Below, one piece after another: positions 44,001 through 47,000 of a stretch of 64,000 bases of DNA. This DNA is from Escherichia coli (lineage in GTDB: Bacteria > Pseudomonadota > Gammaproteobacteria > Enterobacterales > Enterobacteriaceae), in the NCBI RefSeq assembly GCF_009931435.1, contig NZ_CP043414.1; one strand, written 5' to 3'. The first letter of the stretch is position 1; every line of letters begins with the position of its first letter. The position numbers were made by a program.

Positions 44001-47000
44001 TTACCACCTGTTTGATTGCCGGTATCGGCAGTATTGCGATGGGGATATTTGCTAACTTACCCGTGGCGCTGGCTCCGGCAATGGGGCTGAACGCCTTCTT
44101 TGCGTTCGTGGTCGTGGGGGCGATGGGCATCTCCTGGCAGACCGGGATGGGCGCGATATTCTGGGGCGCAATTGGACTATTTTTGCTCACGCTGTTTCGC
44201 ATCCGGTACTGGATGATCTCCAACATTCCATTAAGTTTACGTATTGGTATCACTAGCGGAATCGGATTATTTATCGCCTTAATGGGGTTAAAAAATACTG
44301 GTGTTATTGTCGCCAATAAAGACACCCTGGTGATGATTGGTGATTTAAGTTCTCACGGTGTGTTGTTAGGTATATTAGGGTTTTTTATTATAACCGTGTT
44401 GTCATCTCGTCATTTTCATGCCGCGGTGCTGGTCTCTATTGTGGTGACGTCTTGCTGTGGATTATTTTTCGGTGATGTTCATTTTAGCGGCGTCTATTCC
44501 ATTCCGCCTGATATTAGCGGCGTCATTGGTGAAGTGGATTTGAGTGGCGCATTATCACTTGAACTCGCTGGTATCATTTTCTCCTTTATGCTGATCAACC
44601 TATTTGATTCATCAGGAACATTAATCGGTGTGACTGATAAAGCTGGCTTAATAGATAGTAACGGTAAATTCCCTAATATGAATAAGGCGCTATATGTTGA
44701 TAGCGTCAGTTCGGTGGCGGGCGCGTTTATCGGCACCTCGTCTGTTACCGCCTATATTGAAAGTACTTCTGGTGTGGCAGTTGGTGGTCGAACGGGGCTG
44801 ACTGCGGTCGTGGTCGGCATTATGTTTCTGTTGGTTATGTTTTTCTCGCCGCTGGTGGCAATGGTCCCTCCTTACGCCACCGCCGGAGCGTTAATCTTTG
44901 TTGGCGTGCTGATGACCTCAAGCCTGGCGCGCGTTAACTGGGATGATTTTACCGAATCAGTACCTGCATTTATTACTACGGTGATGATGCCCTTTACTTT
45001 CTCGATCACCGAAGGGATTGCGCTTGGCTTTATGTCGTACTGCATCATGAAGGTGTGCACCGGGCGCTGGCGCGATCTGAACCTGTGTGTGGTGGTGGTC
45101 GCTGCTCTGTTTGCACTGAAGATTATTCTGGTGGATTAGTAACTGGCGAGGGTTTCCAGATATCATGAGTTCTGATTACGCAGGAGAACTCATGATCTGG
45201 ATAATGCTCGCTACGCTGGCGGTGGTGTTTGTAATTGGTTTTCGGGTGCTGACATCCGGGGCCAGAAAGGCGATTCGCCGTCTCAGCGATCGGCTGAATA
45301 TTGATGTCGTACCCGTGGAGTCGATGGTCGATCAAATGGGAAAGTCAGCCGGTGAGGAATTTTTACGTTATTTGCATCGCCCGGATGAGTCGCACCTGCA
45401 AAACGCCGCGCAGGTGTTGCTCATCTGGCAAATTGTCATTGTCGATGGAAGCGAACAGAACCTGCTGCAATGGCATCGGATTTTACAAAAAGCTCGCCTC
45501 GCCGCTCCCATTACCGACGCTCAGGTCAGGCTGGCACTGGGTTTTCTGCGCGAAACCGAACCTGAAATGCAGGATATTAATGCTTTTCAGATGCGCTATA
45601 ACGCGTTCTTTCAGCCTGCCGAGGGCGTTCATTGGCTGCATTAAAACCGTTTCGTCTTATTAGCTTACAGACCGCGCCTGAGCTGGTGGGTGGATAAGGC
45701 GTGCACGCCGCATCCGGCATCGGAACTGACAGTAGGTGAACGCATTATCTACGTTCTATTTACAGCAGCACCTCCAGCCCGTGTTTTTGCACAATGCTGA
45801 GCAGTTTTAATGAAATGCCATTGGGGCGTTTAGCGCCACTTTCCCATTTTTGTACAGTTGAAACGCTGGTATTGAGATAGTGAGCGAAGACGGGCTGACT
45901 CACTTTTAATTTTTCCCGCAGTGCTTTTATCTCAACAGGTTGTAAGTCTTGCACGCTGGTCAGGCAGGCTTTGTCAAAAGTACGCATCGTTTCGGCAGAA
46001 ATAGCATCGACGCTGGACAATCCAGCCGCTGCGCTGTGAATAGCCTCAAATGCAGGACTTTTAAATTTAGTTTTTGCAGTCATAGCAGATCTCTGTCAGT
46101 TCTTTAGTGTTAATCATTGCTGTTAGTTGGGCTTTCGTCAGGAAGGCATAATGCTTTGCAAGTTCACGAAACCCAGCCAGTTCCTGACTATTGATGTTCG
46201 ACATATCCTGTTTTGCATATAAAAACGTGTAAAACCAATTGCTTCCCCCTTTTGCCAGAATAATTGCACGCTCACGATTTTGGTGAAGGCGCTTTTTAAA
46301 AACGCCACCACCAAGTGCATCAGCTTTACCTTGCTCCGTTTCTAAAATGGCCCGGCACAACTCTTCATCTGTTATTGCATGAGACCTGGCTTCCCTTGCA
46401 AACCATTTGGTTTTAAACACGCGCATATCGTTGAGGTCCTGTTATTAAAGTATATCACCAAGTGCAATACTTTATCCCTTATTCCCAACCCAATCGCGAA
46501 AATGCATATCAGCTTGCCCTATGATTTTTATTTCTTCGAGCAGCCTCGAACTTTTCCCACAACACCGTAAAAGTTGCAAAAACGTTAAATGTGTCACACA
46601 TTTCAGTGTTAAAGTGGTCGGCTTTTCCTCTGAAACATGCCACGGGTAACACCATGAGTGAATTTATTGCCGAAAACCGCGGCGCGAATGCCATCACCCG
46701 ACCGAACTGGTCAGCCGTTTTCTCGGTGGCGTTTTGCGTCGCCTGTCTGATTATCGTTGAGTTTTTGCCCGTCAGTTTGTTGACGCCAATGGCCCAGGAT
46801 TTAGGCATTTCGGAAGGGGTTGCCGGGCAATCGGTGACCGTGACCGCCTTTGTGGCAATGTTTGCCAGTTTGTTTATTACCCAGACAATTCAGGCCACTG
46901 ACCGCCGCTACGTTGTTATTTTGTTTGCCGTTTTGCTGACGCTCTCCTGCTTGCTGGTTTCCTTTGCTAACTCATTCAGTTTGCTTTTAATCGGTCGTGC

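Follow-up and report, generated by a model that had tools for sequence, protein, structure and literature searches.

The closest described systems to the locus analysed here are HigB-2/HigA-2 (HigB2/HigA2) of Vibrio cholerae (VCA0468/0469; PDB 5ja9, 5jaa, 8a0x; PMC5416850, PMC11006873) and ToxP/AntitoxP of the Coxiella burnetii plasmid QpH1 (CBUA0028/CBUA0027). In this family, ribosome-dependent mRNA cleavage is known only for HigB2, and substitution of its residues R51, R64, Y82 and K84 by alanine lowered activity 170- to 3000-fold (PMC5416850), with K49 given as the fifth active-site residue (PMC10098735). In V. cholerae a single HigA2 operator overlaps the -10 element (PMC11006873). ToxP inhibits translation in a cell-free system; its partner AntitoxP binds it and, in EMSA, also binds the toxP promoter (PMC10098735).

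The window, a stretch of 64,000 nucleotides from Escherichia coli contig NZ_CP043414.1 (assembly GCF_009931435.1), carries a gene pair that very probably represents a chromosomal type II toxin–antitoxin operon of the HigB2/HigA2 kind (PF06296 toxin plus Xre-HTH antitoxin), a judgement that includes the mechanism and the ancestral-then-lost history proposed below. The original prediction of two overlapping minus-strand open reading frames of 119 and 107 codons, arranged toxin-first as in higBA modules and placed between yicN and nepI beside a REP element, agreed exactly with the ORF listing of the window, in which the toxin gene lies upstream and overlaps the antitoxin gene by 17 nt (Table 1). 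The flanking genes yicN (DUF1198) and nepI were read from the RefSeq annotation of a genome identical over the 821-bp stretch, while alignment with K-12 placed the left border of the variable segment at the REP-type element. A hairpin was predicted at this element, which matched naRNA4, a REP-derived Rfam family, below threshold (33.9 bits; gathering score 59.5); the Rfam scan otherwise returned a single spurious microRNA match.

Table 1. Features of the toxin–antitoxin locus, in coordinates of the window.
Feature	Coordinates	Strand	Description
REP-type element	45680..45720 (about)		3' of yicN; present in genomes with and without the pair
Variable segment	45720..46559		~840 bp; from alignment with K-12-type genome, composition profile and surveys
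Antitoxin gene	45760..46083	minus	107 aa, ATG start; N-terminal segment (~residues 7-41) and C-terminal Xre-type HTH (residues 52-96)
Toxin gene	46067..46426	minus	119 aa, ATG start; HigB-2/PF06296 family, predicted RelE-superfamily fold
Toxin-gene stretch surviving as relic	46324..46342	minus	codons for ~ETEQGK, in K-12-type genomes
Toxin Shine-Dalgarno	46437..46440	minus	AGGA; ACAGGA invariant in four-genus alignment
Putative operator	46446..46474		inverted repeat TAAAGTATTGCAC-TTG-GTGATATACTTTA (minus-strand reading); 13-nt arms, 3-nt spacer
Putative extended -10 element	46449..46457	minus	TGaTATACT, within right arm of operator; read from sequence

In RefSeq the locus already figures as a toxin–antitoxin pair, with the toxin named as such, and no experimental characterisation of the E. 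coli pair was found in the literature searched for the locus and for PF06296. The RefSeq toxin starts at a GTG codon (46420), two codons downstream of the ATG, which yields 117 aa. For this window the longer form of 119 aa is favoured because the ATG, the AGGA Shine-Dalgarno sequence and the first residues were kept in Salmonella, Citrobacter and Klebsiella and because the Pfam model matches from residue 1. The overlapping arrangement recurred in all 14 other family loci whose layout was read, given as three further E. coli, three other Enterobacteriaceae, Dickeya, Serratia, Yersinia, six distant metagenomic relatives and Coxiella pQpH1. Taken with a toxin Pfam E-value of the order of 1e-41, this recurrence indicates from sequence comparison that the two reading frames are more than chance ORFs.

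The toxin had been expected to be RelE/HigB-like, with DUF1044 among the candidate families, and the HMM search returned precisely this family, now Pfam PF06296 'RelE' (the HigB-2 family), at an E-value of 9.8e-42 (142 bits). The match was full-length, with toxin residues 1-113 covering positions 1-120 of the 120-position model, and the same domain was present in all 266 toxin homologues surveyed. PF06296 was the sole Pfam match, as neither PF05015 and PF09907 (Rts1 HigB, K-12 HigB and SehA) nor PF05016 (K-12 RelE and ParE) was matched; no NCBIfam model and none of the PADLOC-DB defence families matched the toxin, and PHROGs gave only a weak match to phrog_5869, a family of unknown function. 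Structure prediction produced a RelE/BECR microbial RNase fold, in which an antiparallel beta-sheet is accompanied by N-terminal helices and a flanking C-terminal helix, and the closest fold matches of this model were RNases, V. cholerae HigB2 being the best among them. HigB2 was not recovered from PDB sequences at E ≤ 1 by phmmer or with a 45-sequence profile, and hhalign gave a probability of just 18%; what links the two toxins is therefore the Pfam model, together with the predicted fold and the catalytic residues. Residues K44, R46, R53, Y70 and K72 aligned with K49, R51, R64, Y82 and K84 of HigB2 (hhalign, MAFFT), and among 45 family members K44, R46, R53 and K72 were each conserved in at least 90%, while position 70 is Phe in many. 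The beta2-beta3 loop of the toxin is short, and about 21 C-terminal residues have no counterpart in HigB2, which are modelled as a helix (98-106) and a strand (110-115). Judged from alignment and model, the product of the first gene has a RelE fold and the full set of HigB2 active-site residues.

The second gene product had been described as an XRE antitoxin with a C-terminal HTH, and this was borne out by a match of residues 52-96 to Pfam HTH_3 (E = 1.2e-7) and by the similarity of residues 46-102 to V. cholerae HigA2 (PDB 5jaa_A; phmmer E = 8e-10), a match that covers the HTH part with no sequence match to the HigA2 N-terminus. Other comparisons also ended at the HTH: the C-terminal part of Pfam MqsA_antitoxin was matched, positions 47-119 alone of the MqsA family profile TIGR03830 scored 41.1 bits (cut-off 61.8) and NadS scored 41.3 (cut-off 60). 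The N-terminal sequence contains neither Cys pairs nor a CxxC zinc-finger domain. PADLOC-DB yielded generic HTH matches alone, and PHROGs assigned the protein to phrog_2104, another family of unknown function. Across 10 loci, residues S9, A14, H16, M33, R34, D37 and C40 were invariant in the N-terminal segment. In an AF2 model of a toxin-linker-antitoxin fusion, antitoxin residues 7-41 were predicted with pLDDT of 84-97 (10-residue blocks), and two toxin loops rose from about 71 in the toxin modelled alone to 80-92 in the fusion. By analogy with its relatives, this segment is presumed to be the toxin-neutralising part.

The putative operator lies 20-48 nt upstream of the toxin ATG, as found by repeat search, and its palindrome was kept across four genera in the alignment. 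In 13 of 14 family loci, including that of the Coxiella toxP promoter bound by AntitoxP, its core CAC-N3-GTG precedes the toxin gene, and the extended -10 motif TGnTATA(C/T/G)T was shared by Salmonella, Citrobacter, Klebsiella, Dickeya, Serratia, Yersinia and Coxiella. The putative toxin promoter has no good -35 element, and a consensus sigma-70 promoter and terminator scan, which requires a -35 and is blind to an extended -10 alone, reported no site. The palindrome conserved throughout the family overlaps the putative -10 of the only plausible promoter, and at sequence level the operon shows the HigA2-type arrangement of a single inverted-repeat operator over its -10. A regulatory link to nepI was considered in view of the conserved divergent arrangement and was set aside, since Dickeya, Serratia and Yersinia carry the module at different positions.

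Following HigBA-2 and ToxP/AntitoxP, the free toxin would bind the ribosomal A site, cleave translating mRNA and so halt protein synthesis, while the N-terminal segment of the antitoxin would wrap around the toxin and block it; an antitoxin dimer, alone or together with toxin, would bind the palindrome through its HTH and repress the operon. All of these steps are carried over from relatives whose identity is just 18-33% for the toxin and about 40-55% for the antitoxin.

A genuine toxin–antitoxin module could also act on a target other than ribosome-bound mRNA, for which RelE-fold proteins offer precedents. ParE poisons gyrase. Salmonella SehA inhibits RNase III (PMC12817084), and given such precedents the toxin need not cut mRNA; its extra C-terminal helix and strand could supply a new interface for a non-ribosomal target. 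However, SehA comes from another family (it shares 40% identity with K-12 HigB) while the toxin matched PF06296 alone, all five HigB2 catalytic residues are present with four of them near-invariant in the family, the best fold matches are RNases, and ToxP, which has the same C-terminal extension, inhibits cell-free translation (PMC10098735). Another target is accordingly regarded as improbable, and cleavage of translating mRNA is retained as the proposed activity.

The presence/absence survey that had been suggested showed that, of the 5426 complete E. coli genomes, 1716 (approximately one third) carry the pair, as a single chromosomal copy in each; 3667 genomes share one common deletion junction, at which a 41-bp relic replaces the variable segment. 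Only two alleles, intact and common deletion, account for 5383 of the 5426 genomes. As had been suggested for K-12, a K-12-type genome (O16:H48) has no pair at the yicN-nepI site. Its relic aligned locally to the toxin gene at 16 of 19 positions, a score equalled in 17 of 2000 shuffles, and, read on its minus strand, the relic encodes AGVKIETEQGKD in comparison to CRAILETEQGKAD for toxin residues 24-36, the shared ETEQGK being an E. coli-specific stretch of the toxin.

Outside E. coli, the pair occupies the same position beside nepI in Salmonella, Citrobacter koseri and Klebsiella oxytoca, with divergence that tracks the genera, and this shared position indicates that the module is ancestral at the site in the Enterobacteriaceae and has been lost, not newly acquired. 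No close relative was found among enterobacterial plasmids and phages. This result, the synteny and the K-12 toxin relic together point to one deletion in part of the species as the source of the variability within E. coli, a single event that would have left about two thirds of the E. coli sequenced, K-12 included, with no module. The suggestion of a strain-variable addiction module therefore holds for its strain-variable part, as the pair is not universal core, but not for the recent mobile acquisition that it implied. Each component of the original proposal was otherwise borne out, and neither of the outcomes named as refuting it was found.

Loss on this scale can also be interpreted as decay, in which the E. 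coli toxin has little or no activity, the HTH protein is kept mainly as a transcription factor and the pair is dispensable. Two thirds of complete E. coli genomes lost the pair with no compensating locus, in the O157:H7 allele examined the ATG of the toxin has become ATA, with GTG alone remaining, and conservation is higher for the antitoxin than for the toxin in comparisons with Salmonella (80% versus 70%) and with Coxiella (55% for AntitoxP, over 104 aa, versus 33% for ToxP). In the window, however, the reading frames, start codon, Shine-Dalgarno sequence, catalytic residues and operator are all intact; identity across the whole 821 bp is 95% or more in 1715 of the 1716 copies, both genes were annotated in 24 of 24 copies among the matches listed, and the pair has been retained at the nepI site since before Escherichia, Salmonella, Citrobacter and Klebsiella split. 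Decay is thus considered as doubtful as a different toxin target, and an intact module lost by deletion from part of the species remains the favoured reading. That a mobile addiction cassette recently entered certain E. coli lineages by insertion beside the REP element is the least credible account, as the lower GC content of the variable segment (41-47%, flanks 51-56%), the patchy distribution in E. coli, the other sites in Dickeya, Serratia and Yersinia and the distant relatives on alpha-proteobacterial and Coxiella plasmids, some beside transposase or resolvase genes, are outweighed by the syntenic, genus-tracking copies, the toxin relic in the 'empty' K-12-type site, the two-allele pattern and the failure to find a target-site duplication, an integrase or any close copy on a plasmid or phage.

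The pair, a chromosomal toxin–antitoxin locus that is absent from K-12 and whose family is known, has little importance beyond bookkeeping. The analysis nevertheless yielded evidence for an ancestral nepI-adjacent module in the Enterobacteriaceae, a family-wide candidate operator motif and a corrected toxin start, and the locus provides a clean presence/absence marker in E. coli, where an intact module alternates with a deletion that holds a recognisable toxin relic. The core PF06296 clade, which includes the E. coli toxin and ToxP, is set apart from HigB2, the one member with structural studies, by its extra C-terminal helix-strand unit (residues ~97-116, with E112 nearly invariant), by antitoxins that are more conserved than their toxins and by the operator motif (T)AGCAC-N3-GTGCT(A), common from Coxiella to E. 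coli. There is a slim chance that this clade works differently from V. cholerae HigB2, either in how the toxin is held and released or in its target, and antitoxins of different hosts or replicons might repress one another's promoters, a form of anti-addiction. The E. coli pair is an easy and well-posed system in which to ask if core PF06296 toxins act like HigB2.

MqsA (C-terminal domain) and NadS resemble the antitoxin in the HTH part alone, with scores below cut-offs. The HigBA pairs of Rts1/Proteus and of K-12 (ygjN-ygjM) and SehAB share the toxin-first order, the RelE-superfamily fold of the toxin and the Xre-HTH antitoxin, but their toxins do not have the C-terminal helix alpha3 arrangement of HigB2 (PMC5416850). 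SehA was rejected as the Salmonella relative of the toxin, being related to K-12 HigB and having residue numbering that does not fit; Acinetobacter baumannii HigBA2 was likewise rejected as a relevant relative, as it belongs to the GP49 family.

V. cholerae HigB2 is also a PF06296 protein (PMC11980606), although a peripheral one (34 bits, model positions 8-96), and shares all five active-site residues with the E. coli toxin at just ~18-24% identity and with no direct sequence match. In HigB2 the beta2-beta3 loop is longer and the extra C-terminal helix and strand are absent. Both antitoxins have a C-terminal HTH, preceded in HigA2 by a neutralising N-terminal part and in the E. coli protein by a presumed one, and the layout of operator over -10 is the same, but the base-contacting residues R68, E71, N72 and R77 of HigA2 correspond to S75, Q78, K79 and A84, and the V. 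cholerae operator TGTACGC-N5-GCGTACA differs from the motif of the E. coli pair. Additionally, V. cholerae HigBA-2 resides in the superintegron whereas the E. coli pair lies beside a core gene.

ToxP/AntitoxP differs from the E. coli pair in being plasmid-borne and serving plasmid maintenance, where the latter is chromosomal and syntenic across genera, in the long Gly/Lys-rich beta2-beta3 loop of ToxP, which is absent from the E. coli toxin, and in a canonical -35 (TTGACA), which the E. coli promoter does not have. ToxP nevertheless belongs to the same Pfam family and the same length class as the E. coli toxin, C-terminal extension included; its gene likewise precedes and overlaps that of its antitoxin, and its promoter bears the same CAC-N3-GTG palindrome before a TGnTATAGT -10.

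The two overlapping minus-strand ORFs of 119 and 107 aa, toxin first, described in the original prediction were recovered exactly in the ORF listing and the sequence, and the RefSeq neighbourhood likewise placed them between yicN and nepI; a REP-type element flanks the pair. The larger ORF comes first and the two overlap by 17 nt. In a RefSeq genome identical over 45700-46520 the gene order was adeD, adeQ, yicN, antitoxin, toxin, nepI, iatC, with the product names DUF1198 (yicN), 'helix-turn-helix domain-containing protein' (antitoxin) and 'type II toxin-antitoxin system RelE/ParE family toxin' (toxin). 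Directly 3' of the antitoxin stop codon, within the variable segment and before the REP, lies a hairpin, GAACGUAGAUAAUGCGUUC (45735-45755, minus strand), that is not a canonical terminator since it carries no U-tract.

Features of the toxin–antitoxin locus in window coordinates
Feature	Position	Strand	Description	Source
Toxin gene	46067..46426	-	119 aa, ATG start	ORF listing
Antitoxin gene	45760..46083	-	107 aa, ATG start	ORF listing
Inverted repeat (putative operator)	46446-46474		13-nt arms, 20-48 nt upstream of toxin ATG	Repeat search
REP-type element	about 45680-45720		Between yicN stop and antitoxin stop; common to K-12	Sub-threshold match to REP-derived Rfam family naRNA4

On the nepI side, a perfect 8+8 palindrome, AAATGTGT-c-ACACATTT, at 46587-46603 (some 50-65 nt before the nepI ATG, which is at 46654) lies in the segment common to both alleles, is largely kept in Salmonella, Citrobacter and Klebsiella, and is probably a nepI regulatory site. 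Beyond nepI the window continues with iatC (48041-57717, plus strand), an inverse autotransporter adhesin gene so named by RefSeq in a related genome, where its product has 3225 aa. Here it is broken into ORFs at 48041..52453 and 52450..57717 that lie in different frames, suggesting a frameshift that reflects either a pseudogene or a sequencing error. At least one further E. coli genome, that of strain HS-02, carries yicS rather than iatC after nepI.

Pfam analysis of the toxin covered the whole PF06296 model ('RelE', formerly DUF1044; E 9.8e-42) and gave no other family, in agreement with the RelE/HigB-like assignment proposed. A 2025 survey of the RelE/ParE superfamily places V. cholerae HigB-2 in PF06296 and describes the family members as ribosome-dependent mRNases whose genes are ordered toxin then antitoxin (PMC11980606). 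The crystallised HigB2 sequence (5ja9_C) matched the model peripherally only (34 bits, model positions 8-96), and direct PDB searches with the window toxin, by phmmer and by a 45-sequence profile, returned no match at E ≤ 1. Toxin residues K44, R46, R53, Y70 and K72 aligned with HigB2 K49, R51, R64, Y82 and K84 (hhalign, MAFFT), all five of which are given as the active site (PMC10098735) and the last four of which, when substituted by alanine, cut activity 170- to 3000-fold (PMC5416850). In a 45-sequence alignment K44, R46, R53 and K72 were nearly invariant and position 70 was Tyr or Phe; E112, in the C-terminal extension, was also nearly invariant.

The antitoxin carried the predicted C-terminal Xre-type HTH (residues 52-96), with V. 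cholerae HigA-2 as closest solved relative (E 8e-10, residues 46-102) and scores under the curated cut-offs for the MqsA and NadS families. Residues S9, A14, H16, M33, R34, D37 and C40 were invariant in ten loci spanning 46-85% antitoxin and 37-72% toxin identity and, judged from sequence, the first 45 residues of the antitoxin are more than low-complexity filler. An AF2 model of a toxin-(GGGGS)5-antitoxin fusion predicted two helices in blocks over antitoxin residues 7-41 (pLDDT 84-97), and confidence in two toxin loops was higher than in the toxin modelled alone. This model would allow the antitoxin N-terminus to fold onto the toxin in the manner of HigA2 (PMC5416850).

On the coding strand the inverted repeat reads TAAAGTATTGCAC-TTG-GTGATATACTTTA, its right arm including a putative extended -10 element (TGaTATACT) followed by an AGGA Shine-Dalgarno. 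Palindrome, -10, Shine-Dalgarno and ATG were kept in Salmonella, C. koseri and K. oxytoca (consensus AGTATAGCAC-TTG-GTGCTATACT). The core (T)AGCAC-N3-GTGCT(A) was also found immediately 5' of the toxin gene in Dickeya, Serratia, Yersinia and five of six distant metagenomic relatives, and in the Coxiella toxP promoter it lies between a TTGACA -35 and a TATAGT -10. Of the 11 occurrences of GCAC-N3-GTGC in the fetched loci (88 kb), ten lay just upstream of a toxin gene. In Dickeya fangzhongdai (L017) a second such site, at about 6115 and ~2 kb from the pair, falls inside another small HTH_3 gene (5999-6316, minus strand), toward its 5' end, and hints at a related repressor–operator unit in the vicinity.

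The toxin ATG was kept in all four genera compared; RefSeq starts the toxin at a GTG, giving 117 aa, in each of the four E. coli copies for which annotation was examined. In an O157:H7 allele (L015, strain NE 1092-2) a C>T change on the plus strand (window 46424) has turned this ATG into ATA, and the only remaining start is that GTG, two codons downstream. Antitoxin conservation exceeded toxin conservation at every distance examined (window 45760-46426 versus fetched loci L004, L008 and L020), with 80% versus 70% identity to Salmonella and 55% versus 33% to Coxiella; type II pairs usually show the reverse. Both the lost ATG and this skew would fit a decaying module, a rival explanation that we consider unlikely. 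The recognition helix and operator core were conserved along with the antitoxin.

The anatomy of the pair is that of a type II module, and its activities are those we infer from HigBA-2 and ToxP/AntitoxP. In the mechanism that we favour on this analogy, the toxin would cleave ribosome-bound mRNA, the antitoxin N-terminal segment would neutralise it, an HTH dimer at the palindrome over the -10 would repress the operon, and the 17-nt overlap would couple translation of the two genes. A different toxin target was also considered, the Salmonella RNase III inhibitor SehA being a precedent (PMC12817084), but SehA belongs to another family.

Among 5426 complete E. coli genomes, 1716 carried the 821-bp segment, always as one chromosomal copy and at ≥95% identity in 1715. 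The sole exception (79%; L003 2950-3720, strain HS-02, NZ_CP172818.1) is annotated as frameshifted and has many homopolymer-like substitutions, all of them within the toxin–antitoxin segment; it seems to be an artefact of assembly or sequencing, not a truly divergent allele. The remaining genomes, queried with the flanks, gave a two-piece match with ~800 bp missing between. The K-12 junction was found in 3667 genomes, so that two alleles cover 5383 of the 5426. In line with the original prediction, the K-12-type genome aligned lacks the pair: 41 bp replaces window 45720-46559. This relic aligned with toxin codons 46324-46342 at 16 of 19 positions, a score reached by 17 of 2000 shuffles, and by this measure is not random; its minus strand translates to AGVKIETEQGKD, the matching toxin residues being CRAILETEQGKAD, and only the Escherichia allele has the stretch ETEQGK.

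Salmonella, C. koseri and K. oxytoca had the pair at the same place, divergent from nepI, with toxin identities of 70, 73 and 66% and antitoxin identities of about 80-85% (nepI: 87% Salmonella, 83% K. oxytoca); on these identities the pair's divergence tracks the genera. The pair adjoined pabA/argD-like genes in Dickeya and Serratia and lay elsewhere in Yersinia. In Serratia (L018 4205-7360) the next genes encode a MutS_V-domain protein and a HerA/DUF87-type ATPase, a pairing that resembles the make-up of defence islands. Searches of plasmids and phages found no close relatives, the plasmid relatives being only 30-55% identical and residing on alpha-proteobacterial and Coxiella plasmids. The suggested 'strain-variable addiction module' is variable, but its recent acquisition as a mobile element is contradicted by both synteny and the relic. 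The simplest reading is that the module resided beside nepI before the enterobacterial genera split and was lost from part of E. coli through a single deletion.

Over 1000 contigs in public databases encode the exact window proteins, the toxin under the name 'type II toxin-antitoxin system RelE/ParE family toxin' or 'Addiction module toxin RelE', and genes of this kind in E. coli are labelled HigB-2/HigA-2 by Prokka-type annotation (PMC10304320). A literature search on the E. coli pair found no experimental paper. The pair is a known kind of system, already annotated, and what this analysis adds is small: the K-12 relic, an operator motif common to the family, and a corrected toxin start.

In comparison to HigB2, the window toxin has a short beta2-beta3 loop and ~21 additional C-terminal residues, for which the model gives a helix (98-106) followed by a strand (110-115). 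The operator shares with that of HigA2 the layout of one inverted repeat over the -10 (PMC11006873), but the palindrome sequence and the base-contacting residues of the recognition helix differ. A closer CHARACTERISED relative, found by tblastn against plasmids, is the Coxiella burnetii pQpH1 pair ToxP/AntitoxP (CBUA0028/0027), where ToxP overexpression stops growth, ToxP inhibits cell-free translation, and AntitoxP binds both ToxP and the toxP promoter (PMC10098735). The window toxin is 33% identical to ToxP, C-terminal extension included, and the antitoxin is 55% identical to AntitoxP over its full length.
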